Below are positions 6,398 through 56,331 of a stretch of 64,000 bases of DNA, piece after piece. The stretch covers positions 23,808,001 to 23,872,000 of the forward strand of contig OZ210885.1 in assembly GCA_964658305.1 (NCBI GenBank), written 5' to 3'. The position numbers were made by a program, and so were the translations under genes. The stretch is from Leptogorgia sarmentosa (taxonomy: Eukaryota). Below the pieces are notes generated by a model, which searched no databases, was not told the DNA's origin, and was given only the letters and a program-made list of their open reading frames with translations. The first letter of the stretch is position 1, and every line of letters starts with the position of its first letter.

Positions 6398-6981
6398 CAG
6401 GGTGTCTCAAAGAAAAGGTAATCGAAATTTGGCATGCCATTGTGTGTTAATTACTGGGTGTACGAACGTGATTTTTGCATAGTCATAAAGATCAAGGTCT
6501 TAGCAGTTGAATGACATATTTCTTGTACGATATGGAAGAAAATCAGGCAAATGCGAGCGTGTTGGAAAATCTCAGTGAAAAACGCATTCTTTCACCTCTG
6601 TGCCAAATTGAAGCAGTGCATAACAAAAGAAAAATGCAATTCATCACGAATGTGTCATGGTAACAAAGATTTTATCAGGATTATTAATATTTATGCATAA
6701 TCAGGTCGATTGTTGAAGGAAGGTCGTCATCTTCGAGTCCCAGAGGGAGTAAATTTTGAATAAGTTTAGCTGCAATTCTCAGAGGTGAAAGAATGCGTTT
6801 TTCACCGAGATTTTTCAACACGCTCGCATTTGCCCGATTTTCTTCCATATCGTACAAGAAATATGTCATTCAGCTGCTAAGATCTTGATCTTTATGACCA
6901 TGCAAAAATCATGTTCGTACACCCAGTAATTAACGCACAATGGCATGCCAAAGTTGGATTACCTTTTTTTTAGGCACCCTG
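6398..6981. mobile_element. Tc1/mariner-type MITE with ~200-bp TIRs
   Basis: TA|CAGGGTG...CACCCTG|TA; 6398-6600 is the near-perfect reverse complement of ~6780-6981; no coding capacity. Confidence 0.92.
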
Positions 6982-8260: not shown

Positions 8261-8575
8261 TGGGGTTGGTACAAAACCTGGACCCCCACATTTGGACCCC
8301 CATATGGATTGCATTATAATAATTCATTACAAATCAAGCACATTCAGGTTTAGCATATTTGACCAGGGGAGTCTTATTTTTTCACCTATGATCATGCATC
8401 AATTAAAGCTTTTTAGAAGCAAAAAACCACTTTAGTATCTTTGGACACTCTCCTCTCTTAAATTTTCCAGGCATAAATTCTAATTTTATTCTTAACCATG
8501 GCCAGAAATTGTGGACATTCGAGCCTGCGTAACATTCTGCGGTTAACTAGCAGAGTCACAGTTATGCAATAAAAA

Positions 8576-9473
8576 ATCGCGTCGGCTAGTGGAGTTCGGA
8601 AAAGAAACTTAGTGAACTACAGACAACTGCATTTGTTGTCTTCAGTAGTGCTTTATGACAATGCTCCTAAAATCAAGAAAAGGGATAGGATTTTTTGAAG
8701 TGGATAGGATATTAGCCAAACAAAAGATAAGATTTGTTAGTATATAGAGTCAGTTTGTCAGTTGCACATTTGAGATATTTTAAAATATCATATGTTTGAG
8801 GTCAATAACCTTTTTTTATTTTATTTTGAATAGGACCATGAGTATTTAATCAAGTGGAAAGACTGGCCACTTGATGCTTGCACTTGGGAAGTATCAAGTA
8901 ACCTTACTTCAGATTTAATAAGGCAAGTTTATTGATTATAAATATATAATTTGTTCTTCAATATAACACGACTTTTAAATTTGTTAATTATAAAACGGCA
9001 ATATTTATAAAGCGCATATCTTGGTGCACTTGTATTCTACAAAGAGTGATTTTTCATTTTCATATTTACAATTTTATAACTAAATCAAATTTCTTCCAAC
9101 TCGCCGAAATTATGAGAAGCCAAAAAATATCAGTAATACAAGGCTGGAACAGGCTTGTCGGCAGTTTGCATGTGGTGTGCTAAGTGCATTAGAGAGCCCT
9201 TCGATACAAGAAAGGGAAGGCATCCAAACATCAAGGACATACTTTGCTTGCAAAAGACGATTTTTCAAGGCTTAACTATTTGTCTTCGCACTGGTGGTAC
9301 TATATGAGTGACAATGGGGAGGGGATGGCTGTTGATTTTCCTCTAAAAATGAAGCCACTGTTGTCATGGTCTCCTGCTCACAGCTATGTAAATAAAGGAA
9401 CTGATTCCCACTGGAAAAAAATTGTGTAACACTTGTCAAAAAACCATGTAATGTGGATAACTTATACATGTGA
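8576..9473 (+). pseudogene. Spliced chromodomain-protein gene, decayed
   Basis: Exon 1 ~8576-8735 (..RKRNLVNYRQLH..IFEVDRILAKQK; 1-nt slip in a T run; start ATC in AAAATCGCG context); GT..AG intron; exon 2 8834-8922 (DHEYLIKWKDWPLDACTWEVSSNLTSDLIR); GC donor; exon 3 ~9107-9473 (NYEKPKNISNTRLEQ..WWYYMSDNGEGMAVDFPLKMKPLLSWSP) with a degenerate acceptor and frameshifts. Confidence 0.82.
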
Positions 9474-9560
9474 ATACCATAGTAAAACAGATGTTGATAA
9501 CATGACCTAGCAGTTTTTGTTAGGTTAACCTTGGCTGGTTAGTTTTTGGTATTAAGCTAA

Positions 9561-12500
9561 CTAACGAGTTTGGAATTGCTCATCTTGTAGTTTCTTCAGT
9601 GATCTAAGGCGGGTGGAAATTCCCTTCCCCTTTAGCATGACCTTTATTTCTTCGGCTGTCATGCTTTCCACTGTATTCTCACCAAGCTCCAAGATTTCCT
9701 CAGGACATTCTGTGCATATTCATACTCACTTTGAAATGCTTAAAGATCTTATTGTGGAACTAGAAAAGGTATTTGATGATTTTTGTGTTACAACCGAAGA
9801 ATACGAGTTATTAGTGTCCGATGAGAAGTTTGTTGAACACCGGGTGGTAAATGGAGATGACCTAAAAATGTATAAAATGAACGTTACACAAACATACCAA
9901 GAAGCAAGAGAAGTTTATACTCGAGTAAAGTGGGACAAAGATAAATAGAACAAAATATGACAATGGCCCCTCTAACAACAGCCATAAAGAGAGACATGAG
10001 CAGACTGAGAAATATTATCTTAGCTGTGGAGACCAATTTATCTACAGAGAACCCCAATCCTGACAGCTTGCATATGGATAAGGGGGACATGGAAAGGTTA
10101 TTAGATGAAATCTGTGATAAAGTAGCTGAACTTAGTGCAATGCAGCAAGATACTCAGTTGCAAGAAGATGTAGAGGCAATCATAGATACAGCTTACAAAA
10201 CGTTAAGAAATATAAATTTGAGTTTGAGGAAGAACCAAAATACAGAAACGACTGCCGTGTTAAATGATAGAGGGTCCCCCACGAATGCTGAAAGCCATTC
10301 CAGTAATACCTGTACATTGACAACCTTTGAAACCAGTCATACTCAAGCCCAAGCAAGCAGCTCAACCTCAGCTCCAGTTGAACCCATGTAGCCCAAATTT
10401 CCAACCGATGAGAGTTCCAGCTGTAAGTCTACCGGTCCCTACTGTTTATTCCACCATGGGCTTCACATCGCAACAATACCATCCGGCTAGTTCCATGCCT
10501 TTGGTTAGTTCAGTGCATTTGCCGAATAGTCAGCCATCAACATTGCCCTCCATTGCACCCCACTTTCTTGGCATTGCAACTCACACTACCACCAGCCCTG
10601 ATTTATTGAACCCAGCATACATTCTGCCAACGAATCCAAGATCAGAATTGAATACATTCCTACAAGCTAGTGGACCCTTAACCCAATCCTGGTATTACAA
10701 TGCAACACCACTTACACCATCAAATAGTATTGGTTATACCCAACCAGTTCGATCAGTTCAACCCCCTGTCCTCCACCCACCTTGTCCAGACACAACACAA
10801 GTTGGCACAAATGCAAATGTTAATTTGAAGAAAACTTCCTTGGCAGTATTTAGTGGCCACAGAAGAGATTGGCCAGAGTTCAAGGCTGTGTGGAAGCAGC
10901 TAGCTGAGTCTGTATACACCAACAAGACAGCTCTAGCGCACGAATTAAAGAGGTCCGTGAAGGGAGAAGCCAGTCAACAAATTCGCTCCGTATACATAAC
11001 TAGACCAGAAGCCTATAATGAGATGTGGAGAAAGCTGGAGGCCCACTATGATGATGCAAGTGCCAGCGTCCAAGCAGCTTTGTCTGGTTTTCAGCAGTTG
11101 AAACCTGTGGAGAGCGAGGACTATAGATCATTAGTGGGATTGGTTGACGAAGTAGAAGCGGCCTTCTGTCAGCTGCAGGAGCTTGACCATTTGAACATTC
11201 TCACCATGAGAGATGTTGACCAAATTAGCAAGTTCTTACCAACCCATGTAAGAGTTGAATGGATTAGGAAGTATCAAGACATGCCTTCTTCTGAGAGAGT
11301 CAAGCCCTTCCCATATTTCATGAAGTTCTTGGAACGGGAGCGAGAGGCTGTAGCCAGACTGGCAGAAAGTCAACCACTGAAGAAAAATTTTTCTAAGCAG
11401 CACTATCAAGCCAGTGCTACTGGTCATTCGGCAAAGTTTTATCAGTGTGCCTATCTGGCACACAGGAAGGACAACATCAATCACACAACAAGTGAGTGTA
11501 AAGAATTTCAGAAACTCCCAGTGTCTGGCAAACAGGGAAAATATGAGGTCCTGAAACAGATAAACGCATGCTTCAAATGTTTTGGCAACCACAAAAGACA
11601 AGAATGCCCAAAGAAAGACCCCTGTCCAGCCTGTGGAAGTCAGTTGCATCATGTTCTACTGTGTAAGGAGAAGAATCGTTGGGAAAAAGCTGAATTCGTA
11701 CCCGCGTCTGAACAGCCGAAACCCCATGATGACAGCCGTGAAGAAGCAAACAGCCATATGGTCCAAAGTGATGCCATGGCCCTGTACCCCATTTACCAGG
11801 CAATTGTAGTGGAGAGTGGTAGAGCAGTAAGCATTTTCTGTGATGGTGGATCAAACTCAAGCTATATCACCCATTGTGCGGCCAACAGTATCAAAGCGAA
11901 AACGATAAGAGAGTTAACACTTGACGTGACCAATGGGCAATGTAGAGAAATCTTACAGCACACGCGAGTACCAGTTTACGATTCGAACATGTACCGGCAA
12001 GAAAGTTACTGTCAATGCCTTCGGAATGGAAAGAATAACTGGCCCCATTAGCAAACTCAACCTTGATGTGTTAGTCCAGTTGTTCCCGGATTATGACCCG
12101 GAGTCCTTGCAAAGAAAATCTACCAACATCGACGTGTTACTGGGATGCGATCATTTTGGGCTTCACCCCAAGCAGGAGGAGGCACGGTGCGGTGAGAATC
12201 TCAGCATTATGAACGGAGAGCTGGGGATTTGTCTGCAAGGATCCCACCCAGACCTTAAAGAAGAAACACGCTATGACACAAATTTGGCGAAGACAATCCA
12301 TGATGTTCGACGCAAAGCACAAACTTACTTTGCCCGTGTCGGAGACCATCCAGAGTTCACCCGTCAAGCCATGTTGGCGGACAGTTCGTACCAAGGCGAC
12401 GACGCGTTCCCTTGCTTGTTACATGCTGCCAGGTCCAAAATTGGCAGAGAAAAGGACAGTCAAGTAGAGAATTTTATCCGGGGAGAAGAGCTTGTCACAG

Positions 12501-15500
12501 AAACGTCACCCAGATGTGGTGGTTGCCGATGTAATAAATGTCCAACCGTGGGACATACTTACTCCTTTAGAGAGGAGCAAGAGCTCAAGATGATACAGGA
12601 AAATCTGGAATACGACGAGAAGAGTCGACGAGAGAGTGTTGGAAGACAAGCTATCCTTGGCTGGTTAACCCGACCAGTCTTCCCAACAATTACAGTACTG
12701 CCCTCTCAACCCTGCGCAATACAGAAAGAGTCTTGTCTAAGGACAAAAACTGGGCCGAGACGTATGAAGAGCAAATGAAAGATATGCTAGATCGTCATGT
12801 CGCCCGCAAATTGTCGCCCAAAGAACTCGAGGAGTGGAAAGGTCCCGTATTCTATATTTTGCATCTTGCCGTGGTTAATCCTCGTTCCAATTCCACACCG
12901 GTACGTATCGTCTTCAATTCTAGTCAGAGCCATCACGGTGTGTCGCTGAATTCCTGCCTAGCAAAAGGCCCAGACGCATACATCAACAACCTGGTTGGAA
13001 TTTTACTTCGTTGGAGAGAAGAGCATGTTGCTTTCATGGGAGATCTGAAAAAGATGTTTAATTCCATTCACCTAAAAGCTTTGGAGCAACATTGTCACCG
13101 ATTTTTGTGGCGTGACATGAACACTGAACGCGAGCCAGATATCTTCGTGATGGAGAGAGTCAACATGGGCAACTCGCCAGTGCCAGCTATAAGTACGGAA
13201 GCAGTTCACAAGACAGCAAACTTGTTTGAGGAAGAAAGTCCGAAAGCTGCTGAGCTGTTAAGAAGGTCCAGCTACGTGGATGATCTGATCGATTCCCAGC
13301 CCACCAAGTCCATGGCACTGAAATTAGCGCAAGACACAGAGAACATACTAAGAGAACATACTAGTCAAAGGCGGCTTTGCCCTCAAGTGTTGGCAATTCA
13401 GCGGCGAAGAGAAAACGCGTTTGAGTGGAGAACTCGCTGAACAGTACCACAACACAGATTTGGAACATGAGCCAACCGACCTTACGCGAGGGCGTCCAAT
13501 GCTGAAAGGATCTGATGACAATCTTCGTTTCTTGGGTGTGGGGTGGAGACCGAAACAAGATGTCATTGTCTTCGAAGGTGTCTTTAATTTTAGCCTGAAG
13601 AGAAGAGGAATACGAACTGGTCCCAACCTGACCCTCGCTGAGTTACCCCAGGCAATACCGGATGTCCTAACCAAACGAATTGTTCTTCAACAAGTGATGA
13701 GAATATACGACCCCCTCGGATTGGTGAGTCCATTTACCCTGATTGGAAAGATCTACCTCCGAAAAACCTGGGCCCAAAATCTGGGATGGGACGAACAACT
13801 TCCCGCGGATCTACGGGCAAAGTGGGTCAAATTTTTCATCTCGATGCTCCAGTCAGAAACGATGAATTTATCACGATGACTTTGACCTCCAAATGCTGTT
13901 GGCGAACCTTGGTTGGTGATACTTAGCGATGGTAGCGACATTGCCTATGGTTTTGTGGCATACATCAGATGGTTGTTGGAGGACAATACCCCGTGGTGCC
14001 GATTAGTCATGGCTAAGAGTCGGGTGGCCCCAGTAAATAAGTTATCAATCCCCCAGATTGAGCTGAATGCGGCGGTATTATCAGAAGAGAGGACGGAAAG
14101 TCATCGAACAGGAAGTGAGATTTAATTTCGAACGCGTGCTCCAGATCGTTGACTCAGAAACAGTCTTAAACACGATAAACAAAACCAGCACACGGTTTAA
14201 AGTCTACAAAGGTGTCCGATTGGGAGAGATACAAGCTGCTACCGAGGGGGATATGAGTTGCTGGGCATGGATGTCCGGCAAGAATAACATAGCAGACAAG
14301 AGGACGGCCCCCACAAGAGCTGGATGAGCAATCAGAGTGGTGGAATGGTCCGGCGATCCTGTACCAGCCATTGGAGGAATGGGATCTTAGATTTGGTTCC
14401 CAGAAAGAAGAATGCCTTCCAGGAAAGAAGTTACGTAGCACATCTACAGCTATATCCAGTCCCTCCTTACTCGACTACGAAAGATTTAGCGACATCGACA
14501 AGGCTATATGGGTAGTGGCAAGAATTCTAGGTGCTTTGCAAAACAAATCCTTTCGTGGTGGAAGGACAACGTCAGTAACACCGGAGTTGTTACATAGCGC
14601 GGAGACGGTTATTGTCAAAGATGCTCAGAAGTTAATGAAAGAAGAATTGTTCAAAACCGATAAGAAGGGACGAAAAGGAGTACGCTACACTTAATCCTGT
14701 TTTAAGTAAAACAGGACTATGGCTAGTCGGGCGACGTCTCAAACAACACAACCCTATGACCCTGGACTCAACCCTCTAGAAGTTGATGCCATACCCTAGC
14801 CGAGTCACTTACCTTTTCATGCAAACAGCACATCGTCGAGGACATAGAGGGCGTGACGGCACTCTAGCAAAATTCCGAAAGAATTGGGTTCCACAAGGAA
14901 GCAAGTTAGCTCAAAAGGTGAAGCACAACTGCCAGCTGTGTAAACTCCGCCAAGCGAAGCTCTTACAGCAAGAAATGGGGCAACTCCCCGAAGCCCGCCT
15001 CAAGCCAGCCCCTCCGTTTACCCACGTGATGCTCGATATGTTTGGTCCGTACATCGTAAGAGGAGAGGTCCAGAAGCGCGTAATTGGAAAGGCCTACGGA
15101 GTTATCTTCACGGACTTGGTGGTTGGAGCTGTACACATTGAAGCAGTGTATGGTTATGACACGCCGTCGTTCTTATTGGCATTAAGAAGATTTGCCTCAG
15201 TCCGTGGCTGGCCATCGACCATATACAGTGACCCGAGCTCCCAAACTTGTTGGGGCGGACCGGGAATTGAAGGAGACTTGGAACAAAATTGATCGCGAGC
15301 AATTGTATAAAGATGGGGCACAAAACGGACTGACATGGTTGTTCGGGCCCATCGATAGTCCATGGAATCAAGGCAAAGTGGAGTCAAAGCTGCCAAAAGA
15401 GCAATTCATTTTGCAACACACAAAAGTCGTCTTTCCGTGCCTGAATTCCTCACGATATGTTACGAGGCTGCCAATCTCCTCAACGAAAGACCAATTGGTA

Positions 15501-17470
15501 CGCTACCCGATACGGACTCTCACCTGAACATTCTAACACCGAATACCCTTTTGTTGCGACGGGCATGTGCCAAGAACCCCGGCAATTGGGAACCTCACCG
15601 ACAAAGCATAACGAATCGTTATCATCTGGTCCAAGCAGTCGTAAACGAATTTTGGAGTAAATGGATAGAGCTGTGTGCGCCAACGTTGGTGAACAGTTAT
15701 AAGTGGACCACACCTAGTCGCAACGTGAGACCTGGAGATGTCGTTTTGATAGCGGATAAGAACTCGTTGAAGGGAGATTATCGTCTCGGAATAATTCAAG
15801 AAGTTCGCCCCAGTAAAGATGTAAAAGTGCGAAGTGCGTCAGTTAAATACAAGAATTATAAAGCAGGCGAAGAAGTGGTCGTATCTCGCAGCATCCATCG
15901 CCTAGCACTCCTGGTCCCAGTGGAATTTGACCAAAAGAAACTAGAGACAGATAAATAAAGGAACTGCGCTAGTGACTGTATAATTATACTGTTGTAGAAA
16001 TTACATTTGTTCATGTTTTGTTAAAGAACGCGATTGCGTCGACCCTCACCCTCCTGGTGTGTTAGGATAATTTATGCATGCACATCTCAAGCGATCACGA
16101 GAAGGAGAACACGAGGCAGCAAGGACGGCCATATTGAGAGCTATATCATAAACAGTGTTTTACCGATTTTTACGATAAGTTCGACTATTGTTGTGTTAAA
16201 ACATGTTTTAGATTTGTCTATATTAAAATACATTAAAGGTAAACAAATACTGCAACCCAGTACAATCCCATTTGTTAGATCGCATTAGATGAACTCTTCA
16301 GCAATCGTCATTTAACTTTTCAACTCCTATAAGAAAAACAGATTTATTTGCAGCAACTATAGTCTCTGTGCAAACATAGGTTATTAAATCCAAAGCCTAT
16401 GCAGCTGGCAATTTTGAACCTGGGGGAAAAAGGCTTGAAAATCTTAATTTTCCTCATAGGGTGTTTGGACACAAGTGCTAGTTAGTGCAATACTTTCAAT
16501 ACAATGCCAGGAAAGCAATTTATATTATATGAACTTCCCATACGACCAACATGAATATTTCTGTCAGTGCCTGCAGCCAATAACTTTAACCTAGTTTTCT
16601 CAGTCCCATATTACCTTGAAATCAATAGAGATTTCTTATATTACAAACAGACATGCAGATTTGCTTTAAATAATTTATCTCTGACCTTGCCCAGTAAACT
16701 TTTTCACGCCTCCATGCTTTGCCATAAATCGTAGCAGGTGATACACCATTGCGTGCATGTATGGTGTCACACGTTGTTTTTCATAGCCTTCACATTTGCC
16801 ACCAAGTGAGTTGAAAAGTGTTACCCACAACTGGTATAAGCATCTTACTCTGTAGAATGCCAGACGACTCAGTTTTTTTGCATATGTATTGTATATTGGA
16901 TAAGTTACCTTCTCAAAGAAATCTGTGACCTGGTCATCAGTCGGGTTTCTCTGTCCCATTAGATTATAAAGGGCATCAAATTGTTTTGATTTGGATGTTC
17001 CAAGAGTAGGACTGCAAGAGTTGGCCTGAAAGGGCAAAGGCATCATCCCTATAGACACTTTGCTTGTGAGACATCTTTGGACAGTTTAAAATGGGCCTTG
17101 AAAGGGTATTGAAAAACTCTTGTCCCAGATTGGGGGCATAGTCTATATTAGTTTATATTTAAATTATATCTCAAGTATCATTATAACTGTCTTTATGGAT
17201 AGCTTCCAAATTTAACCACTGTAGCACTTGTTTCTGGTTTTGTTACATTCTCTAATTTAGAGGCATTCTCAGTAACAACTTTTTCGATGAACCCATCAAA
17301 CTTGTAAAATCGTACTGATCACTGCTCCGTCTGTCAGCATTAGCTTTTCCCCACATGTTAAAAGTTACACCACAGCTTCGTATGGCTTTTAGAACCGATT
17401 GTAGGTGTTTGCCGGACCTTTGGCAAACAGGTTTATCAAGATTTTCTTTCTTGTCCCATTCTAGCGCTTC
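9561..17470 (-). pseudogene. Spliced RAG1/Transib/Chapaev-like DDE transposase, split by a BEL insertion and 5'-truncated
   Basis: Exon pieces: 17470-17260 (AIRSCGVTF..YDFTSLMGSSKKLLL); ~16985-16686 (FFEK / WVTLF..VTPYMHAMVYH..HGGVKKFTGQG); GT donor at 16685, AG acceptor at 16327; 16326-16265 (GVEKLNDDC*RVHLMRSNKWD); probable C-terminus 9712-9561 (MTAEEIKVMLKGKGISTRLRSLKKLQ..stop). The TPYMH..H and FTGQGVEKxN motifs parallel RAG1 TNYFHKTLAH and ASEGNESGN. Confidence 0.78.
9714..16264 (+). mobile_element. BEL/Pao LTR retrotransposon lacking its 5' LTR
   Basis: Gag with Cys/His knuckles (CFKCFGNH..CPACGSQLHHVLLC), protease (IFCDGGSNSS), RT (HLAVVNP..TPVRIVFNSS, YVDD), RNase H (SDGSDIAYG), integrase (H..H..C..C, DMFGP, SDP, NERPI); many frameshifts. 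The 3' LTR is ~16060-16264 (TGTT..GTACA), and transposase sequence resumes right after it. Confidence 0.95.
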
Positions 17471-17472
17471 TA

Positions 17473-18081
17473 CAGAGTGTATAAAAAAAATGGTAACATA
17501 AATGTGGCGCGCCATATTTCACCAAATCGTTGATGGATTTCATCGGGTTTCATATCATTCGAAAGTTCAGTTCATTAGCTTTTAGATGACATGTTTTACG
17601 TGGTATTTAGTTAAGAAACCAGCGAGCAGTGCTTTGGTGAACGTTTTAAGTGAATATCGCATATTTCCACAGATGGGAATTGCACGCGTTTCTTTTGAAA
17701 TTTAGTCCCAAGAGGTTTAAACATCTTAATCATCCTGCAATTATCATTGCAATTCAAATATTCAAATTAGTGCGAGTTTTCATATTCAGCAAGCGACAAA
17801 AGTGAATCTGAATGATAAATATGTAAATCTTTGAAAATTTGTTGATTAAAAATTCATATCCATTGTCCCGTTTATTCCCATCGGTGGAAATATGCAATTC
17901 TCACTTAAAACGTTTACCGATGTACTGCTTGCTGGTTTCTTGACTAAATGCCGCATAAAACATGTCATGTAAAAGAGGAACAATTGAACTTTCGAATGAT
18001 GTCAAACTCGATGAAATCCATTAATGATTTGTTGAGATATGGCGCGCCACATTTGTGTTACCATTTTTTTGATACACCCTG
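17473..18081. mobile_element. Tc1/mariner-type MITE, same family as 55751-56331
   Basis: TA|CAGAGTGTATAAAAAAAATGG...CCATTTTTTTGATACACCCTG|TA; ~200-bp imperfect TIRs; high similarity to 55751-56331. Confidence 0.92.
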
Positions 18082-18083
18082 TA

Positions 18084-18287
18084 GTTTGCCATACCGAGAA
18101 GGCTTTGTACATCATGTACACTTTGTAGTATTTGGGCGTTCTGTAAATCTTAGGATCAGGTTTGCAACAGTGGGTTGAAAAGATTTGTCCGAAGAATTCC
18201 AGTGTTGAGCTGAGAAAGCTGCATTTCGCTTGGTTAAGACATAGGCCTTTGCTGTGAATTCTCTTCAAACACTGTTCAAGATTCATG
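18084..18287 (-). pseudogene. Short Gypsy RT fragment
   Basis: LEQCLKRIHSKGLCLNQAKCSFLSSTLEFFGQIFS..PDPK. Confidence 0.8.
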
Positions 18288-21200
18288 CAGGGGCGGATTT
18301 TCTGGGGGGGTGCAGGGGGTGCGCACCCCCCTAAAAATTTTGTAGCACCCCCCCAGAAAATTTCCAAAATGTGTATAATTTAATATCATATGCTTTATTA
18401 GTTTATTTTAAAGAAACCTATTAATTACTTATACATTTAGCGCTTAGCAGTAAGAAATTTCACTGCAAGTCTAACTTGAACGTCCGAAACGAAACCAATC
18501 ATTTACAACACATATTGTAAGATGAAGTACTTTGCGTGTTGTTTTGTAACCGCTGACAGTAAATTCCCAAAATGCAGTTGAATTTTGTGAAATCTCTTTA
18601 TAACAATGAAAAGGCGTCAACCAATGCTCAGCGACTTTTTTCGAAAGAAAAACAAAGGTTAGTATCCATCGTTTAGTAATTATTTGTTCTAAATTACTTT
18701 ATTACACTTTGATTTTCAATTTTAATCATACACGGCTAATGCCGTTTTGCGATTTTTTTCGTGCGAACAAGCAATGTGATTGGTGGTGATGTCGTAACAT
18801 GTGTTTGTCACCAGCCTCTTTTCTCTGTGGGCGTGAACAAATTTGCAAAGTGGAAAACAGGCTTCAGTGTTGCCACACTCGTTTGTTCAATTCATGTCCC
18901 ACATAGTATAATCGATCATAGAGGCTTTTTTTCTAGAATCATTATTCGCCGTATACATACATGCAAGCAGTTATTGATATTTGGTGTTTGGGCCGACTTG
19001 ACTATATGTTGCTGATCACTGTTAATTGCTTATCATTTTTACATTCAGAATCAGACCCACATGCTCAACTAGATGATGCCTAAGCCGAACCAGTTATTGA
19101 TGAACATCAAGAACAAGACGATCATATAAATAGTGAACAAGATGATGGTGAAGAACATGGTGCTGAGTCAGACGAGGTTCCTACGAGTTGTGATCCAGAA
19201 CGTGAAGAGCCGCAGCAGAAATCGACTCCTCAATCTAGCCATTCAAGCTCCTGTGATCAAGAATTAGGTATTGAACCATCACAACCGAAACTCCACAAAT
19301 TTCCAATCAATACGAACTTTTCAAGCAAGAAAACGAGATCTTTCAACGCCAACTGGTTCAATCGATTCGACTGGCTTGAATATAACATTGAAAGCGATGC
19401 AGCATTTTGCTTTGCTTGTAAAAACTTTGGCGTAAGAAGTTCCCCAGACAGCACATTTACCGTAACTGGCTTTAACAAGTGGCCTAATGCGCTAGACAAG
19501 GATAAGGGTTTTATGAAACACCAGAAATCACAAGTTCATAAATGTTGTTACGAGAAATGGAAGGCAAAGGTCCGAATATTAGATAGACAAGATACAAGTA
19601 TAGTTGAAAAACTGGTACCAGACCAAGCAAAGACAACTCAAAACAACAGGGAGTATTTTAAACTTCTGTTCCAGTATGTAATTTGGTTTGCGACGAGCGA
19701 AATAGCATTCCGGGGCCACGACGAGGCGGCTGATTCGAAGAATCCAGGCAACTGGACAACTTTTATAAAGATGCAACTAAAGACCAACAAGGAGTTCCGA
19801 AGTCTCCACCAAGCGATAACAGAAAAGAAGCTTTTTGTGCACTATACAAGTAAAACGTCTCTCAATGAAATGTTGTCTATACTCGCGGTTCATATACGAA
19901 ACCGGATATGCCATCAGATCGCAGCTGCCGGTTGCTTCAGTGCACTGATCGACGAAAGCAAAGACAAAGGCAAGAGAGAGGAGCTCGCTTTTTCTGTTCG
20001 CTATTACACCGAGAAAGTTCAAGTTTCTCTCCTTGACTGCACTCACCAAATTTGATCCAGAAGCCATCTCAGCAGTTGCAAAAGACCTCATCTCAAATCC
20101 AACAAAAATCAAATGGATCGCCTGTTATCAGTCTTGGTGTAGATGGCGCTAGCGTGATGTCGGGACGGTTGGCAGGAGTGGCAGAACTGCTACGATCGAG
20201 ATATTTTGAATGGCTTGTATATATTCATTGTACTGCTCATCGTTTGAACTTGGTTGTGGTGGATATGCTGAAGGCATCTTTGTCATCAACTGATGTTATG
20301 ACCACAGTGAAATCCTGCCATACACTGTTCAATAAACCAAAGATCAGACAGAAGTACGAATCACTCCACAAAGAAATGTATCCTAACAAGCAAGTTAAAC
20401 ATATTACACAACAAATTGATATTCGTTGGGGATGCAAATATGAAGCCATTGATGTTATGTATCAAAGATTTGATGTTGTCCTCACGACCCTGATAGACGT
20501 GGCAAACAATCCTGGTGGAAGTGAAGAAGATGACGAGTATGGGTATACGAAATCACAGGTAGAGACAGCAGCTGGATTGTACCACAAATTGATGTCAGGA
20601 AAATTCATCGTCAGTCTGACAACACTTCGTAAGTATCTTGGCAAACTATACTTCCTCAATAAAGAACTTCAGGCCGGAGAAATCGATTGGACAGACGTTC
20701 AGCACGAGATGACTCGAACTCGCGATTCAATTAACAACATCAAAGACGAGGACATATTCATTGAGTCGAACGAAATTTCAAGAAAGACTGGAAACCCCTT
20801 AGCTCTTTGTGATACAATGCCCATTTACAATACTAGGTCCAGAGCTACAACAGTTACGACACCCGATGACCAGGACCATCAGATAAAACTAAAAGAATTT
20901 ATTGGAGAACTCAACAATGAGTTCAACATCAGATTTGACTCAAAGAACATGAACCTCTTGAGAGCTATCAATGCCCTTAATGCAGGTTCAGATACCTACT
21001 TGAACTTAAGTGAGTTTGATGTGCTACTGAACACCTTCAGCTGTCTCAACATTAACAGGTCTATCCTTGAACTAGAAGTCAAAAGAGCCAAGGTTGATTA
21101 CCGTCTTGGTCTACCAATGAATCCAAACAGACTCCCAAATTTGAGAACTCTAATTGCAGTTAAGAACACTATCTCGACCTCAACTGCTTCAGTAGAACGA

Positions 21201-21540
21201 GCATTTTCCCGTATGAATCGTATCTGCACAAAGTTGCGATCCACTCTTCTACCAGAAAGATTAAGTGATATTTTATGCATTTCCTTAAACAAAGATGTTG
21301 CTGAATTGCTCGATTTGGATGAAGTCGTAACAGCATGGGGAAACATGCGCAATAGGAGGGTTAAAGTGTGAGTCATTAACTGACTAACTATAGTTTACCA
21401 GTAGAAAAGAAAATTAAACTAAATAATGAATAACTGTAGTTACAATTTAATTGGAAACTTGAAAAACTATTTATCATTCCATTTATTGAATATTTATTAA
21501 TAACTTTGTTATTGTTTGTTACGTTAAAATTTTTATGAAT
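18288..21540 (+). mobile_element. hAT DNA transposon (ZMYM1/TTF-zinc-finger type), right TIR not found
   Basis: Left end CAGGGGCGGATTT with a GC-rich subterminal region, inserted into the Gypsy fragment; contains the hAT transposase below. Confidence 0.8.
18606..21371 (+). pseudogene. hAT transposase (2 exons)
   Basis: Exon 1 18606-18657 (MKRRQPMLSDFFRKKNK, GT donor). Exon 2 from 19049 has a stop at 19081, a TTF-type finger (WFNRFDWLEY..AFCFAC), AFRGHDE, LIDESKD, DGASVMSG, YIHCTAHRLNL, RW and dimerisation motif SVERAFSRMNRI; frameshift at ~20052. Confidence 0.93.
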
Positions 21541-22209
21541 TTAATTTGAATATTGATATTTTCGGGAACCTACTGTATATCTACTACTACTCTACTACTA
21601 GAGTCTACATGTATTACCTAGCAATTAGTATACCAGTAGCCAGTGTACTATTCAAACTGGTAAAATATTCCGCGGGAACTGATTAAGCATTAAAATGTGC
21701 AGAAATCATGTATGTAGTGCATAAATAATGAGCTGAGATAGATAAAAGGCGATAACTTGCGCTTACACATCCTCTTTTACTGATCGCCACGGGTCGAAGA
21801 GCTCGAGTCAAGAATTTACTGTCCCATTTTTCTTATCGCTGCCATATGGCTCAGAGGCCTATTCGACCACCGCTCCCGCAGAACCATGTTCCGCCAGAAG
21901 TTGTTGTGCCACAAGAAGTTGTTGTTCCACCAGAAGTCCTAATCCCACCAGCTATTGATCCGAATCCAGATATCGCTGTCCCTGGTCCAGTTCATCCCCC
22001 TCAAGCTCAGCGATTAGAGGTACTATGTTTTATCAAATTGGCGTGCTCTGTATCACGATCGCTAATCTGTCTCATATAGATCTATCGTCCTGCTTTGTTT
22101 ATACCCTACAAGCCGTTGCGATTTACACTACCTTTCCTTACTTTACGCCTGGGTCGCATACTTAAGATCTTCACTTACGCTTCACACTTGAGTAATACTT
22201 GAGAACATA

Positions 22210-22677
22210 GTTAACGCCTGTGTGGAGTATTTCAGATTAATAGTGAACGCTTGTTTGGCATATTAAGGCAATAGTTAACGCCTGGGTGGCCTACTTAAGA
22301 CAAGAGTTAACGCATGTGTCGAGTATTTCAGATTAATAGTGAACGCCTGTTTGGCATACTAAGGCGATAGTTAACGCCTGTGTGGCATACTTAAGACAAG
22401 AGTTAACGCATGTGTCGAGTATTTCAGATTAATAGTGAACGCCTGTTTGGCATACTAAGGCGATAGTTAACGCCTGTGTGGCATACTTAAGACAAGAGTT
22501 AACGCATGTGTCGAGTATTTCAGATTAATAGTGAACGCCTGTGTGGCATACTTAAGACAAGAGTTAACGCATGTGTCGAGTATTTCAGATTAATAGTGAA
22601 CGCCTGTGTGGCATACTTAAGACAATAGTTAACGCCTGTGTGGCATACTTAAGACAATAGTTAACGCCTGTGTGGAA
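22210..22677. repeat. Minisatellite of 31-33-bp monomers with higher-order organisation
   Basis: About 14.5 units each starting GTTAACGC or GTGAACGC; three 96-bp ABC trimers, then two 65-bp dimers, then 32-bp monomers. Confidence 0.95.
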
Positions 22678-22682
22678 GTTAT

Positions 22683-23114
22683 ATGTTCAGAAATGCGTTC
22701 TTCTTTGAAAGAAACATTAACACTACAAAAGATACAGGGAAACATGAAAACAGTTTAGCAGTCAATGGAACATGTAACATTGAGATGCCGAAATTTTTAA
22801 TGCACCTATTTCGTTCTCCAAAAGTTTGGGACGCTGGTAGAAGGTCAAAATTCATTATTAAACCGCTTTGCATGCAATTAGCCAGTATCCTCGTACACCA
22901 GGTCAGACATAGTGGAAATTACGCCCGGTATGTGGTGCCACCAGATTATGCTTTGCTGAACCACTATCGAAAATTTCGTAGAAACGTGGTGCTTCTTGGG
23001 GAAAATGTGAAAGATCTCCGTATTCTAGATGAGCACACTTTTGCTTATCAAGAGAAGATTGTTACAAGATTGAATAAACGTTTGTGTGGTCTAAAACCTG
23101 TCCTAGGCAAGTGA
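22683..23114 (+). CDS. Hypothetical 143-aa ORF of unknown function
   Basis: ATG-to-stop ORF with protein-like composition immediately after the minisatellite; no family recognised. Confidence 0.35.
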   Translation: MFRNAFFFERNINTTKDTGKHENSLAVNGTCNIEMPKFLMHLFRSPKVWDAGRRSKFIIKPLCMQLASILVHQVRHSGNYARYVVPPDYALLNHYRKFRRNVVLLGENVKDLRILDEHTFAYQEKIVTRLNKRLCGLKPVLGK

Positions 23115-25339: not shown

Positions 25340-26713
<1,374 letters not shown>

Positions 26714-26714
26714 T

Positions 26715-28100
26715 TAGAGAATGGCAAGGATGTATTCGAACATGGTGCGAATAAAATGTCCTTGTTTGGCTCTGACAATTTTAATACTGCAGTACTGTTT
26801 CTTCTGTTAGACGGCGGCCAGTCGGTCGTTGGAACGTAGGTTCGTTCGTACGGACAATAGTGGAAACTTAGTAGTTTTTTTCTAATCTTACAGGATACAT
26901 TATTTTTTCCGAGTGTGGTACCAGAAGTTTCCGATCCAGCCCTTGGGCAGAACATTCCAACGCGATTGATAGAGGCTGGAGCTCCGTCAACAGTCGATAG
27001 ATACTCTAGAGCTTTCGTTGCATTCAAGGTTTCGACGGAAAAGTTCGCTGAGTTGAAAACCTTCCCAGCAGTTGTCTGGACTGTATGTCTGTATTTTGAA
27101 CATCTTGTTCAAAATAATTGCCCCTATTCTAGACTTGAATCTGCATTTTATGGCATAAATTGGGCTCATGATTTGTACGGTCTAGAAAATCCTTGCGCGT
27201 CAAAGCTTGTCAAAAATTACTTAGAAGCTACTGAAAGAAGATTAGCTAAGTCAGTCAAGAAGAAGGAACCTGTTACAATGGAAATGATCACCCAACTTTG
27301 TCACAAATTTGCAGGGGATGATGCTAGTCTTTCAGATCTTCGTCTTGCTGCTATATGTGTGACCAGTTTTCATGCCTTTAAGGTTCAATGAACTCGCCAG
27401 TTTGCGTTGTTGTGATGTGACATTTGTCAGTCATGACACAAATACGCGTTTTGTAGAATTATATATGGTCGTGTACAGGGATGGCAACAAAGTGCTTATG
27501 ACCGAATGAAATGATAGTTGTTGTCCTTTCAATATATTATCAACATATGTGAAGATTTCGGGTATCAATTTAACTTCGACGGAACCGTTCTTCAGAGCTG
27601 TCTATTTTTGTAAGTCTAAGGGAGTGTATAGGTTGCGTTCGACTGGACTATCCTATTCAAGGACAAGACAGATTGTCCTGGCTGCGTTTGCTGCCTTAGG
27701 ATATCCTGTTAACGTTTTTGGGCTTCATAGCCTCCGAAGTGGCGGGGCAACTTTGGCAGCTAATGCGGGCGTGAATGACCGCTTATTCAAACGGCACGGT
27801 CGCTGGAAATCAGAAACTGCCAAAGATGGTTACGTGAAGGATAATCTAGATTCGTTACTTTCTGTCTCAGGTTTGCATGTACGTTAAGTTTGCATGATTA
27901 TGTGTGTTAACATTAAATAAATGCCCTTTTGTTATTCGTTTTTAGCTTTCTTTATAAGTGGGCGTAACAATGAGATGCCCGCTTCCTACACTGTTTTCTG
28001 TTGTTTTGTTCTAATGCAGTTTAGCTAGAAAATAATTTATACTCGGTCACAGGGTGTTAGAGTATAAATGAATTTTTTAGCGTTACGGAATGTAAATGTA
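26715..28100 (+). mobile_element. DIRS-like element 3' remnant with tyrosine recombinase
   Basis: APSTVDRYSRAF, SAFYGINWAH, KKEPVT, DLRLAA..F.RFNEL, GLHSLRSGGATLAANAG..FKRHGRWKSETAKDGY (R-HxxR-H-Y catalytic set); frameshifts and a stop. The right boundary is approximate. Confidence 0.9.
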
Positions 28101-42124: not shown

Positions 42125-42960
42125 TTACAGGCCCATCATTGCACACAGTATTTATTGCATTTGTGTGCAGCAAGAAAGGCATTAGGGCCATTTATACGAG
42201 GAAGAATAAGCCGCGGCTTAAATAGGCCGCGGCTAAAATAAGTCGCGAACGTTCGTATAAATGCACAATTTCTTCGCGACAAAACTAAGCCGCGGCTAAT
42301 TTTAGCCCAGGGTTCCTGGCTCGTCTTAAATTAGCCGCGGCTTATTTTAGTCGCGAAGAAATTGTGCGTTTAAACGGTTATGTTCACGACTTATTTTAGC
42401 AGCGGCCTATTTAAGCCGCGGCTTATTCTTCCTCGTATAAATAGCCCTATTGATCCCAACAGAGGAACAATTGCCACAGCAGAAATACACCTCGTCATCA
42501 TTTTCATCCTGCACCTTGTCAGTTGCAATCTCTGGGTCAAACAGTTGATATCCAGTATTCCAGTTCCTTGGATGTCCAACAACATGAACTTTCTGTTAGA
42601 AAATTCATGACTATGATGTACTAAACATTCAGCTTTCTGTAGTATTTGTTTGAGACCATCATCAGCATCCTCTCCAAATGGGATAATAATACCATTGTTG
42701 TTGATTATCTTGGCAAACGATCCTGGGACAAACTCCTCAATTGTCGCTGGTCGATCATTAATTTTTGTGTTATAGCACTGATTATACTTAAAACACTCTC
42801 CAAAATCAGCAGGCACTTTTGAGTTGAATTTTCCTGTTATATGAGTAGCGACTGCATGCATTTGAACTTGTTTCCTACAGTGATCCTCCACTGTTGAATC
42901 CAATGTCTCTGTTATTGATGCAACAGCCTTTGCATTATAGTACTTTCCAGCTGTCTGATA
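42125..42960 (-). pseudogene. Alpha-kinase (eEF2K/TRPM6-7/MHCK family) catalytic domain, truncated and MITE-interrupted
   Basis: RKQVQMHAVA, TIEEFVPGSFAKIINNNG, KAECLVHHSH, MLLDIQG, LFDPEIAT, FCCGNCSSVGI[MITE]NAFLAAHKCNKYC (Zn-binding C-terminus); small duplication frameshift after DIQG. Confidence 0.9.
42184..42448. mobile_element. PIF/Harbinger-like palindromic MITE
   Basis: AGGGCCATTTATACGAGG...CCTCGTATAAATAGCCCT with an ATT duplication on both sides; internal AAGCCGCGGCTT palindromes. Excision restores the kinase GIxxF spacing. Confidence 0.88.
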
Positions 42961-43812
42961 CATTTTCTTAATTCAAAAGTTTGTCTAATTTGGCTAATGT
43001 TCCAGGTTTTAGATAACTTTTTTAGATATCTACTGCGCATGCACCAGTAACACTATGCTACCGTCTGTGTAAGTTAAGCAACACCAATACACAGACGGCG
43101 ACGAAGTTAGCCGATTGTTACACATGGAACCATTGCCATCGCCTATTCGTTTTTAAGCATTTTAGCCGGGAGATGTTATAAAATGTGCACCCTAAACATC
43201 CTAATGTGCATCCAAGCAATGTCTTCATAGAGTTTTTGAGAATGCAATTAATGGTGATTGGACTGTGCCCGAGGCGTTTTTGCATTTATTTATTACTTAT
43301 AATTATTACAAAAATGTCCTGGTAAAATTTTAATTGTCTGTGCTGAAAGGCCGACAACAAGCGTGTTGTTTTCATGTATTTTTTTCTTGCAACGATCGTT
43401 GATGAACAATACAGCGAATATATTTTAAATATTTCTTTGTTCCGTGACCTTGAACACTTTTTAAATAAAATTTCAGAACATTTACTCTACCCAAAGCTAG
43501 CGAACAAAATTGCAGTCGTTCTGTTTACCAGCTATGCTTTTCGACAAGTTCTATTTTCGCACATGCACAATGAAAGTAAACATTGCACACATGGCGGTCT
43601 ACGAATGGCAGTGTGACAAGACGAGACGGGTCGATCTGCAAAGCACCATACAAACCAAGCACAAGAGTATTTGCAATTACAAAGTGAGTGAACTTTTCGG
43701 TTGACAACGCTGCCGCTGGAGGTCTGGCACTGGACAAAAGGAAATCCATCATGGCTTCCACGCTGCCAGGTTTCAAACAAGCTTTGCAAAAAAGAAGCTG
43801 GATGACCATGAG

Positions 43813-44417
43813 ATGCCACCGTTCGACTTTCGATGTATTGAAGAGAAAAAAGTCATAGGACGTGGCTCCTACGGTATTGTTTATAAAGCTCAATATATCA
43901 GCGAAGATGTCATCGTCAAGAAAATACTCAGTGAATCAATCGATGAAGAGGACAGTTTTATCAAAGAAGCAAGATTAATTAGGTCTCTAAAACATCGAAA
44001 CATTGTATCTTTCAAAGCATTCTGCACTAGCCCACTTGCAATAATGCTGGAGTATGTCTATTTTGACTTTGCTCCCTTCGAAATTACCAAGAAAGTTAGT
44101 AACTTGGTTGACTTTTTGAATTTTTCGGATAAAATACATGCATTTGAATAATTCGATTCCAAGATGTTAACTACAATATGGCACGACGTGGCCAAAGGTT
44201 TGGAATACTTGCATATGAATGACACTGCTCATCGTGACTTGAAAGCGAAAAACATACTGGTGAGTAACCAACATTACTCCAGTGTTTGTAACGAGGATGA
44301 ACGACACTCCATCTACCAAAATATTCCAATCGTTTGTAAACTTGCCGATTTTGGGAAGAGCAGATCCACGTCAATACAAACAGCCCAACTTCATTCTACA
44401 ACAAAGCATGTTGACAG
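43813..44417 (+). pseudogene. Protein kinase exon (Ser/Thr or TKL-like, subdomains I-VII)
   Basis: IGRGSYGIVY, VIVKK, FIKEARLI, LKHRNIV, MLEY, GLEYLH, HRDLKAKNILV, KLADFG; in-frame TAA at 44149-44151; GT donor at 44418; later subdomains not found. Confidence 0.9.
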
Positions 44418-45079: not shown

Positions 45080-48000
45080 GAGGTGAATACTTGAAGGTAA
45101 ATGATGTTCATTACTTTGTAAAGGCGCGCGCAGCAGCACCTACATGAACAAGATCCTCTACCAATTGATGTAACAGGAGATAACGATTCCATGGATTCAT
45201 CGGATGAGGGTGTTGTCACTGAATCATCCAATTCATCACTTGAAATAGTGGAGAAAAAAATTGGCCAAAAGGAAGCAAACTTTATAAAGCGGTAGGGAAT
45301 TATACAGTATCATGAGTAAGGAATTCCTTAATGTTGACAGTCATACTTTTCAAAGTATTGGAAATTATCTAGAAAGAATGTTTAAAATATCATTGTTGCC
45401 TTGCAGTTGTATTGAAAAACGTGTAGAAGACGTAGAATAATCTGGTCCCGAGTCTACTTGTTTGCAACCATCAGCCTGTTAACGTGGAACATAATCGCTT
45501 GTTCTTAGTAGATTTAAATGCTTTAAAATCAAAAAGTGATATCAAGTGCGACGATTCTGGTTGCTGGATAAATAACAGCTGCAACAAATTCCAGTTCGTG
45601 AAGTATGAAGATAATTGGACACAGTGCGGCCATGTGGACTCTGATCACGGTAGACAAAAAATAACCCTGAAGCGAACGTACTACCGCTTGAAAAGCGATG
45701 AAAGTGACGACTTTCGATGGCGAATTGATTTGATTGAATGTATGTTATTGATAAATTTTTCAGTTAATTATTCTTACTGATATAATTGACAAAGGCGGGA
45801 TGCATGCATTCTGTTTCTTTAAAGATCCACTGTGATCACCCTAACATTACTACCCAAAGGGGCTGTGCATTGATTGCAAAGCATACCTATACTTTGAAGC
45901 TTTGCATTGCGGATTTGTTTGGTTAACACCATGTGAATTTTAAAACAACTGTATTGAAATCTAAGCTTTCTGCTAACCTCACGCTAACATCAGTTATTCA
46001 AATTACATGATTAAGAGATGGATTTTAAAACGCTATTTATAATATTTAATGTACGCGTGATTAACACGCCATCCTATACCTATATGCTCACATATATCCC
46101 ATATAAATCGTAACTTTGAAAAAAGTGGTCTTGTGTCTTAACACAAAGGTCCAGTATCTTTTCACATTTTTTTTCTTTTTATCTTTTTGTTTATAGTGTG
46201 CACTGGGGAACTTCATAGGTTCTGCTTAGTTCAATACTTGTTTAAAGGCGATACTGAGCATCCTATCATACCACAGCCTCATAAGAACTCCAAACAGGTA
46301 TCACAAACATACGTCCGAACATGGGAAAGCACAAAATTACTGCTAAAGAGTGCTCCGGAAAGAATGACGCCTCGTGATGTAGTATATACGACCGTGACAA
46401 ATGAAATTGGGGGAATTTCAAAATGTTCAAGCTCTGGTCAGTTGCCAAGAGGCCGACAGCAAGTGAAGGATTTTTCACGGTATGCAAAACAACAGAGAAC
46501 GCAAAACACTTCTGAGCAAGTTAAAGACGACGATCCATGGTTTCGGCTACTTGCTGAAGGTAAGAAGCAGGCTTCATCAAGAAAGACTGCCTTCATTCGT
46601 GACCTTTATGCGTATTGGCGACTGATAGACAGATTAATGACCTAAAGCGTTTTTGCTGCCATCCAACTGAACTTAAGCCTTTTACAGTCGATCCTACATT
46701 TAATATTGGTGAGTATGACCAATCACCTACTGATCTGACTCCGATCACCTACCGATCTGACTCCGATCACCTACCAACATCTAATACTGGAAAACAAAAG
46801 AGATGGGAAACACCCGTCGTTGATAGGACCAGTAATGATTCATGAGAAAAAAACCAAAGACACTTACGCTGCATTCAGTGGCACTCTGAGAAACCTAAAG
46901 CCTGAGTTACGAGACATACTTGCTTTCGGCACGGATGACGAAGAAGCATTACACGAAGGGTTTAAGAACAATTTCGAACGCTCTATCAATCTTTTATGCG
47001 AAATACACCTTAAAAAATCTGTTGAGAAGAAGCTGATCGAACTGGGAATAAATTGGAACTATATACGAGAGTGGTTTGATTGTCACAGTCCTGTTCGTCA
47101 AAGAGCGGGTTTAGGTTTTCCGCCAGAAAAGTTTACGACAAATCGTTCTGAACAAACAAATAGGTCAATCCAAGAATTTGTCAGAAAAGAATGCAAGGAA
47201 CAGAAGAAAGTTGACGAGTTCTCCTTCTGCGTGGCTTTAAATAAGTTAGTAAAGATACAAAAGCAAGAAATAGAATTGGCAATAGTTGGAAATGGAGAAT
47301 ACAGGAACAGAGATAAATATCAACAGCTTAGTGTACCCCCGGAAAAGTGGAACAAGATGAATGAGAAGCAAAAAGAGATTGCAGTGGAAAGGATTCATTC
47401 TGTCGCATTTGAAGAAAGTACATCAAACGTGAGTGTGATTACTAAAGCCGTCAATGATGGAGAGAATTCCCTTTGTGCGAAAATGGTTGAAGAAGGTATC
47501 GACTGGATTCCCAGGACTATCCTCGAGCAATTGACTGGAAAAGCCGTTAAGTTATCAAAAACACCAGGAGCTTTGGTTCAACAGTCTGTGGATACTATTG
47601 TCGTTGCATCAAATTCAGACCCAAGAAAGCTGCATATCGTCAATCTATTCGCAAATGGCTGAATTGAATGTAACAGTTGCCCTGGCTTCTCATCTCTATC
47701 GGTATGTGCTCATGTCGTTGCGGCTTGCATCAAGGCGGACAGAACAGACCAGTTTCTATGCTGGCTTGTTTCCTCAAAACGCAATAAACACACCGGTATT
47801 AATTGGTCGAAGGCAATAACTTTTGGTATGCCTGAAGGCAGAGGGAAAAAGGGTGAAAAAGCACCGCGAAAGTCCAAACTATGGACAATTTATCATTTAT
47901 TTATTACAGTGCTGCCCAAGGCAAACCACTAAAAGGTGGTGCTGAAATAAGAATGGCGCCCAATGACCTAGTCATTGTTTCAAAGATGTCAAGAGAATTT

Positions 48001-48145
48001 ACTTATAATGGCACTCCTCAAAGTAAGTTATCAAATGTCTACTTTCATTGTGACATTAGATGTGTTCGGCGAATGCTGCCCAACTTCCAAGCTAGTTGTT
48101 GTACAGTTCCGCCAAGTATCAAGCCTCACCTTCTTCACATTCACT
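45080..48145 (+). pseudogene. Spliced Mutator/MULE-like transposase with SWIM finger, decayed
   Basis: DIKCDDSGCW, PHKNSK..YVRT, LPRGRQQV, FTVDPTFNIG (D), AFGTDDEEAL (D), LLCEIH (CxxH), FTTNRSE (E), SWIM-like ECNSCPG..VCAHVVA at ~47665-47725, C-terminal PNDLVI..NVYFHCDIRCV; frameshifts and deletions. Confidence 0.83.
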
Positions 48146-55750: not shown

Positions 55751-56331
55751 CAGGGTGTATAAAAAAAATGGTAACACAAATGTGGCACGCCATATTTCAC
55801 CAAATCGTTGATGGATTTCATCGAGTTTGATATCACTCGAAAGTTCAGTTCATTAGCTTTTAGATGACACGTTTTATGTGGCATTTAGTTAAGAAACCAG
55901 CGAGCAGTGCTTCGGTGAACGTTTTAAGTGAATATTGCATATTTACACCGAAGGGAGTTGCACACGTTTCTTTTGAAATTTAGTCCCAAGAGGTTTAAAC
56001 CTGCAATTATAATTGCAATTCAAATATTCAAATATTCAAATTAGTGCGAGTTTTCATATTCAGCTAGCGACAAAGGTTAAAAACATGGGTCAATTGACAA
56101 TTGTTGATTAAAAATGCATATCTATTGCCTTGTTTATTCCCATCGGTGGAAATATGCAATTTTCACTTAAAACGTTTACCGATGTACTGCTCGCTGGTTT
56201 CTTGACTAAATGCCGCATGTAAAAGAGGAACAACTGAACTTTCGAATGATGTCAAACTCGATAAAATCCATTAATGATTCGTTGAGGTATGGCGGGCCAC
56301 ATTTGTGTTACCATTTTTTTGATACACCCTG
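55751..56331. mobile_element. Tc1/mariner-type MITE, second copy of the 17473-18081 family
   Basis: TA|CAGGGTGTATAAAAAAAATGG...GATACACCCTG|TA with long imperfect TIRs. Confidence 0.92.

Follow-up and report, generated by a model that had tools for sequence, protein, structure and literature searches.

The 64,000-nucleotide stretch of Leptogorgia sarmentosa DNA analysed here (assembly GCA_964658305.1, contig OZ210885.1, positions 23,808,001 to 23,872,000, hereafter the window) contains the 3' portion of a dead DNA transposon of the cut-and-paste type with two genes: a transposase, whose predicted fold is that of RAG1 and Transib, and, on the opposite strand, a gene encoding a chromodomain protein that I call the partner. 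Together with its relatives, the element represents a real, apparently undescribed two-gene lineage of a known transposon clade, in which the pairing of a RAG1-fold transposase with a likely histone reader was apparently reached independently of RAG1-RAG2.

In the window the two genes face each other. The partner gene occupies 8576-9473 of the plus strand in three exons, while the transposase is found on the minus strand as four decayed exons within 17470-16265 and a C-terminal piece at 9719-9561; 87 bp separate the two stop codons (9471-9473 on the plus strand, 9563-9561 on the minus strand). The initial annotation had reported a three-exon chromodomain gene at this distance from the transposase stop, which is confirmed by a match to Pfam Chromo (PF00385) at 8834-8926 (E 1.4e-9). 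It had placed the beginning of the element at 8576; the element in fact extends to a terminal inverted repeat, CATGGCCAGAAATT (8497-8510, plus strand), which is taken as the partner-side boundary on the basis of the same motif at both ends of six related loci (L005 and L063-L067, see below).

The transposase exons were delimited with P0002, an Acropora cervicornis protein of 782 residues that was the one longer protein obtained with the window exon query 16678-17085, and which maps back onto the window at residues 488-586, 578-654, 654-675 and 721-766 (47-82% identity). In the direction of transcription, the first exon (17206-17470, 3' boundary approximate) carries the TSLMG motif and corresponds to P0002 residues 488-586 (52%). 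It is followed by a short exon, FDALY..FFEK (16909-16986; P0002 residues 578-603), with a GT donor at 16908, a decayed acceptor and an approximate 5' boundary, by an exon with the TPYMH-x4-H zinc ligands and FTGQG (16686-16830, 5' boundary approximate), and by an exon running from GVEKLND to RSNKWD (16265-16326), which bears the third catalytic residue and one in-frame TGA and is 82% identical to P0002 residues 654-675. The piece at 9561-9719 encodes a SAP-like domain; because P0002 residues 721-766 align there (54%), it is the true C-terminus, as had been proposed for a peptide at 9561-9712. The motifs TSLMG, TPYMH..H and FTGQG|GVEKLND are all present as first described, and the proposed join of 16686 to 16326 is a GT-AG intron (16685-16327) that splits the last of them. 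The idea that the catalytic Glu is formed only by splicing holds for the motif, which is indeed assembled in this way, but the Glu codon itself lies wholly in the downstream exon. Of the related loci, 16 have an intron that interrupts GQG|VEK at the same place and 22 have the motif in one piece, a count that leaves out L011, L012 and L053, flagged but not introns.

Partner exon 1 (8576-8735, plus strand) encodes an N-terminal motif and the first chromodomain strand with cage residue F, and was located by tblastn to residues 1-84 of the homologue P0095; its start codon reads ATC (8576-8578) and it contains one frameshift. Exon 2 (8834-8922, plus strand), with a GC donor, encodes the chromodomain core KWxxW..TWE, and its boundaries fit the comparison of the intron-less locus L011 with L012. 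Exon 3 (9107-9473, plus strand) encodes a conserved alpha/beta domain of about 140 residues matching P0095 residues 84-226, and shows a CG acceptor (9105-9106) and internal deletions. Because of the ATC start, the frameshifts, the CG acceptor of exon 3 and the TGA in the GVEKLND exon, both genes of the window are pseudogenes. A copy of 8497-9403 in run X20, assigned to another organism, is about 95% identical and lacks several of these lesions, differing from the window at 8578, by one base at 8685 and by 50 extra letters at 9203/9204.

Two insertions mark the window copy. A BEL/Pao-type long terminal repeat (LTR) retroelement remnant, foreign to the DNA transposon, sits inside the transposase gene (9720-16264, plus strand; Pfam DUF1759, a weak RVT_1, and DUF5641); neither a 5' LTR nor an LTR pair was found for it in the window. 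Of the limits 9714-16264 first given for this retroelement, the right one stands, a BEL-type terminus ..ACA at 16264 abutting the exon that ends RSNKWD, and the left one shifts to near 9720, as transposase similarity continues to 9719. The loss of sequence suspected at this insertion amounts to about 45 codons (P0002 676-720). Neither the first ~487 codons of the transposase nor the opposite terminus of the element lies in the window: the 5' end of the TSLMG exon is severed by a TA-flanked miniature inverted-repeat transposable element (MITE) at 17473-18081 (no strand assigned), not the element's own, of which a second copy lies at ~55746-56333. The copy is dead: it has undergone the BEL insertion, loss at its junction and disappearance of the 5' half beyond the MITE. 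The far flank of the MITE is unrelated sequence, and recombination between two MITE copies would explain this.

The constancy of the gene pair was assessed in 81 loci fetched by a transposase profile alone, 79 on metagenome contigs (from the best 80 among 229 stretches that were confirmed) and two on genome contigs. Queries taken only from the window revealed the partner downstream, on the opposite strand, in 23 of the 81, and a partner profile, built partly from these same loci, revealed a facing three-exon chromodomain gene in 27. Among loci with a transposase end, the partner was present in 23 of the 29 having 1 kb of downstream sequence and in 18 of the 20 having at least 1.5 kb. The 27 paired loci make up 18 clusters at 90% transposase identity and eight at 60%. 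Pairwise identities of transposase and partner correlate (rho 0.40, reached in 1 of 2000 permutations; 19 copies, 136 scorable pairs), and the same locus, L073, is nearest to the window for both proteins. A quick tree of 44 rows, built with one locus per near-identical set and without RAG1 or Transib as outgroup, places the window together with P0002, L040 and L073. To judge from these sequences the two genes are inherited jointly; kinship alone gives such a correlation, which does not imply physical contact.

Both genes and the terminal repeats form one mobile unit. Locus L005 (5.2 kb) and loci L063-L067 (6.8 kb) have inverted repeats CAT-D-R-CCAGAA at both ends with both genes inside; the termini read CATAGCC..GGCTATG in L005 and CATGGCC..GGCCATG in four of the five others, the left end of L065 being altered. 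About ten more loci show a single such end, and contigs of three runs begin to match the window at 8493-8497 next to several different flanks; many of these contigs have diverged again by 8577, a pattern expected of non-autonomous relatives. L063-L067 are 99.6-99.96% identical to one another and have four different left and five different right flanks, which points to recent mobility. The initial annotation had assigned both genes to a single transposon, an assignment to be dropped if they occurred independently in other copies; convergent co-occurrence in 27 of the 81 loci and the shared repeats bear it out. CAC ends had also been named as a sign of a Transib or RAG element; the ends here are CAT. 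Repeat-like motifs in genome G001 are attributed to chance, given their bacterial-looking surroundings, except one beside the transposase of L081. In that locus (G001:C4:2371300-2393381) spliced, eukaryote-like transposon genes, comprising the same transposase family and a BEL element, stand within a 2.5-Mb contig of a bacterial metagenome-assembled genome; the stretch is probably mis-assembled host DNA.

Several observations weigh against this picture of a mobile pair. Three loci of the same anthozoan-like clade (L010, L024, L029) have no facing gene despite 1 kb of sequence and are apparently rearranged or truncated, and in L032, a rearranged fragment, the partner lies upstream. No target-site duplication of at least 3 bp was found within any of the six two-ended contigs, whose flanks the assembly may have mispaired; the only matches, one of 2 bp (L067) and one of 3 bp between contigs, are at chance level. 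Because no duplication could be shown, transposition is deduced from flank diversity in collapsed assemblies. This absence, and the single left flank shared by L024, L028, L029 and L076, would suit two host genes that do not move and are either fixed as a cluster or side by side by chance. Such an explanation is nevertheless largely refuted, and very improbable, in view of the inverted repeats at both ends, the sharp drop in homology there, the different flanks around the nearly identical copies and the co-divergence of the two genes.

The relationship of the transposase to RAG1 was approached through profiles and structural models. Residues 290-782 of P0002 retrieved 83 proteins, the named ones coming from corals, sea anemones, octocorals, a mussel, a sponge and glomeromycete fungi, and the transposase profile matched 1,215 cluster representatives at E ≤1e-30, the counts at looser thresholds being possibly inflated by a coiled coil. 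No family was found in Pfam for the transposase core, and the viral contigs searched gave no relatives. A search of solved structures with the single P0002 sequence did not return RAG1; with the profile, RAG1 was the top match (E 1.2e-4), and the RAG1L protein of ProtoRAG was also matched (E 0.0023). The profile alignment to RAG1 pairs the second Asp, the C-x2-C and H-x4-H motifs and the final Glu (GNE in RAG1). D310, assigned by motif and position, and D391, C410, C413, H631, H636 and E656, assigned by alignment to RAG1, are each kept in at least 90% of aligned rows. The P0002 model (pLDDT, the predicted local distance difference test, 90.8) matches RAG1 in Foldseek (E 7e-14) and superposes on it with Z 27.6 and a root-mean-square deviation (rmsd) of 3.4 over 437 residues, followed by ProtoRAG (Z 24.4) and HzTransib (PDB 6PQX; Z 22.6, rmsd 4.1 over 408 residues). 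The next unrelated transposase, P element (Z 12.9), is well behind, Hermes scores Z 9.3, and a wide structure search gave the same order. In the ESM Atlas the core lies near RAG1 clusters, after cnidarian and fungal ones. The transposase is therefore predicted to have the RAG1/Transib fold, and the kept D-D-E, C-x2-C and H-x4-H residues together with this model argue for an enzyme of the active type.

Around the core, the model shows an N-terminal alpha/beta domain, a long coiled coil and a SAP-like tail, whose residues 731-778 match the 3'hExo chains 4l8r and 1zbh (Z 6.2 and 5.6); the Pfam SAP matches on P0028 and P0045 are below cut-off. The N-terminal 300 residues have no conserved Cys/His column and no match in the Pfam set used, which includes no Chapa profile. 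Identity to the RAG1, ProtoRAG and HzTransib structures is only 13-15%. The first description of the element as related to RAG1, Transib and Chapaev is thus supported as to fold but probably not as to membership: because of the CAT ends, the low identity and the lack of a kelch partner, the element is, as far as these features can place it, a separate, distant lineage that probably belongs to neither Transib, Chapaev nor the RAG-like (RAGL) transposons.

The partner family comprises 71 proteins, with full-length members of 219-229 residues in Desmophyllum and Paramuricea. Since L011 lacks exactly the two introns of L012, a spliced form exists in a natural record. Exon 3 of seven diverged pairs gave nonsynonymous distances (dN) of 0.22-0.73 and synonymous distances (dS) of 1.8 or saturated, and substitution rates thus show the partner to be under purifying selection. 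The partner model (pLDDT 88.9) consists of a chromodomain and a small alpha/beta domain. HP1, Chp1 and Polycomb are the closest structures to the chromodomain (Z 6.8-7.1), and CBX7 and CDYL in another search. The positions of the aromatic cage, F/Y/W, W and W/Y, which I take to correspond to HP1 Y24, W45 and Y48, are kept in the window, in all loci with the exon matched and in P0095, P0109 and P0114. This modelled chromodomain with an intact cage likely reads methylated histones. The partner matches Pfam Chromo only, without kelch or PHD, and is too short for a six-bladed propeller: it is not RAG2-like, in keeping with the earlier suggestion of a partner other than RAG2. The C-terminal domain of about 140 residues has no match in Pfam or among the sequences of solved structures; fold searches with the partner returned chromodomain-like matches only and barely covered this domain, so that they give no sign of a new fold, and the ESM Atlas matches of the partner scored below 0.9. 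Selection, the spliced form, the intact cage and the HP1/Chp1/Polycomb-like fold together argue for a functional partner. In L011, moreover, the spliced partner and the facing 3' part of the transposase stand on a single contig, as overlapping convergent transcripts would assemble; such transcripts could yield double-stranded RNA.

RAG and Transib transposases nick at the element's ends, form hairpins on the flanks and reinsert the element. By analogy, the transposase described here would bind the CAT-D-R-CCAGAA ends, nick, form flank hairpins and insert the element elsewhere. The C-terminal domain of the partner would dock on the transposase and its HP1/Polycomb-type chromodomain would bind H3K9me or H3K27me, so that insertions would be steered into repeat-rich heterochromatin, the least harmful site. 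There are precedents: passages of PMC6839031 and PMC12477816, citing Gao 2008, have LTR-integrase chromodomains directing insertion to heterochromatin, and one of PMC10462144 has the RAG2 PHD finger setting RAG binding sites through H3K4me3. Counting against the proposal are the Z-scores of the chromodomain, all below 8, the fact that a chromodomain fold does not by itself fix the ligand, and the putative status of both the docking and the chromatin preference of insertion. I give even chances to a partner that docks on the transposase, reads H3K9/K27 methylation and biases insertion.

Linkage, selection and cage would be equally expected if the partner were an anti-silencing or self-regulating factor, which binds H3K9me/H3K27me on silenced copies and competes there with HP1 or Polycomb, or recruits activators through its C-terminal domain, never touching the transposase. 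DNA transposons of the same CMCT clade do carry separate chromatin-acting passengers, namely the TET/JBP genes of ESTA, Plavaka and EnSpm (in the part of PMC12730594 consulted). According to the same part, however, TET passengers group by the genus of their host and pass from one superfamily to another, whereas the partner co-diverges with the transposase, and its C-terminal domain is found next to the transposase even where, in distant lineages, the genes are ordered differently. An anti-silencing role is unlikely.

These distant lineages bear on a further possibility, also rather unlikely, in which transposition requires the C-terminal domain as a structural or DNA-binding cofactor, comparable to the RAG2 core or the Harbinger Myb protein, and the chromodomain is a lineage-specific addition that adjusts activity or stability without choosing the target. 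In L018, L025 and L042 the sequence just upstream of the transposase, and in its orientation, does encode a remote form of this domain (0-1 of 1000 shuffles; profile match to the partner domain with probability 93.8, E 1.8e-7). L041 is marginal (14 of 1000 shuffles) and L021 and L022 fail, so that tree labels marking these three as tandem are unsupported. In fungal-like loci the transposase has a C2H2 protein as its neighbour, convergent in L055 (3411-3983) and L059 (2966-3529) and divergent in L075 (624-1319); the C-terminal part of this protein is weakly similar to the partner domain (4-5 of 500 shuffles for two of the three loci). In L025, L055 and L059, of these other lineages, the facing chromodomain partner was not found despite 1 kb of downstream sequence. 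On the other side, comparison of profiles gives the fungal link no significance (E 0.24), the tandem loci possibly also hold chromodomain remnants, and the cage is strictly kept in anthozoan-like copies. The order of the genes is therefore variable, and the older, constant component may be the C-terminal domain. A wider reading, possible though doubtful, would see an undescribed superfamily-level RAG1-fold branch across cnidarians, other animals and fungi, whose constant second gene joins a transposase-binding domain of a new kind to a replaceable N-terminal reader (a chromodomain in anthozoan-like members, C2H2 in fungal-like ones), as an independent invention of RAG1 plus a histone-reading cofactor; its young copies would then lend themselves to showing how a cofactor of this kind retargets a RAG-type enzyme. 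In L081, a downstream open reading frame (14295-14915) gives a weak Tudor-knot hint (E 0.14) and no match to the partner profile.

Other elements surround the transposon in the window. A hAT-family transposase gene (19084-21371, plus strand; Pfam DUF4371, Dimer_Tnp_hAT; one frameshift), with a left end near 18290, adjoins a short reverse-transcriptase-like fragment (18085-18290). MITE-like elements with long inverted repeats lie at 17473-18081, 55746-56333, 6409-6971 (very high-copy in other runs), 57161-57831 and 42180-42452. Amid transposon remains, an alpha-kinase fragment (42391-42972, minus strand, E 3e-14) stands back to back with a protein-kinase fragment (43705-44151, plus strand, E 1e-11). 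A frameshifted run of open reading frames at 46142-49223 (plus strand), with no Pfam match, resembles a decayed transposase. Fragments at 26861-27887 (plus strand; no Pfam match at 0.01) contain the motif HSLRSGGAT, which I take to be tyrosine-recombinase-like, and are probably a DIRS-type remnant. A minisatellite of 32/65/96 bp (22139-22686) and a long ATCT microsatellite (26512-26715) complete the inventory.

No description of this gene pairing was found in the literature searched, which lies outside Repbase Reports, subscription journals and bioRxiv supplements, so that Repbase may already list the element under EnSpm, Transib or Lanisha. PMC7204232 contains no occurrence of "chromo", and the parts of PMC12477816 and PMC6839031 consulted mention chromodomains only for LTR elements. 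The CMCT clade is described in part of PMC12730594 as having 5'-CA..TG-3' termini and a target-site duplication of 2-5 bp. Such termini are present in L005 and in L063-L067, except at the left end of L065. The CMCT catalytic motif (D310, D391, C410/C413, H631/H636, E656) is present in the transposase alignment. Within this clade, ESTA differs by CAC ends, found in all 25 of the 88 entry starts seen in the supplement, and by TA duplications (PMC12730594, in part). TA stands beside one end in at most one of the six two-ended contigs and beside both in none. PlavakaB differs, in the description consulted, by CATCA ends. In the portions consulted, the descriptions of ESTA, Plavaka and their relatives mention no chromodomain partner.

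Transib shares the catalytic fold and the D-D-E residues with C-x2-C and H-x4-H. In the section of PMC1131882 consulted, it is a single-gene element with a CACAATG heptamer and 5-bp duplications, whereas the element described here has two genes and CAT ends in all two-sided copies and in the window. The 15% identity to HzTransib is also below the 26% average for RAG1L and Transib cores (PMC9435367), two figures obtained by different alignment methods. Chromoviruses, Gypsy elements with a chromodomain on the integrase, offer the precedent of a mobile element that uses this domain to target heterochromatin; there the domain is fused to the integrase of a retroelement, here a cut-and-paste DNA transposon encodes it in a spliced gene of its own. 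If the proposed targeting is true, such a transposon would use a mechanism that, in the literature searched, is described only for LTR retroelements.

A close parallel is with RAGL/ProtoRAG and RAG1-RAG2. These systems, to the extent seen in PMC7204232, PMC9435367 and PMC10462144, likewise associate a RAG1-fold transposase (Z 24-28) with a convergent second gene bearing a methyl-lysine reader module, within one pair of terminal repeats. In the portions consulted of these three papers and of PMC4411706, RAGL transposons are described with RAG2L, a kelch propeller followed by a PHD finger (PMC9435367), in place of the chromodomain and ~140-residue domain found here. RAGL ends are CAC instead of CAT-D-R-CC, structural identity to RAG1 and RAG1L is 13-15%, and the N-terminal alpha/beta domain, the long coiled coil and the C-terminal SAP-like domain are the element's own. 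How the RAG1 transposase acquired its need for another subunit, one that reads histones, is among the open questions on how adaptive immunity originated. Intact pairs, such as L002 and the near-identical L063-L067, could be used to learn whether cutting requires the partner or whether the partner determines the target. That a distant RAG1-fold lineage has the same convergent layout with an unrelated reader suggests that this design arose at least twice.

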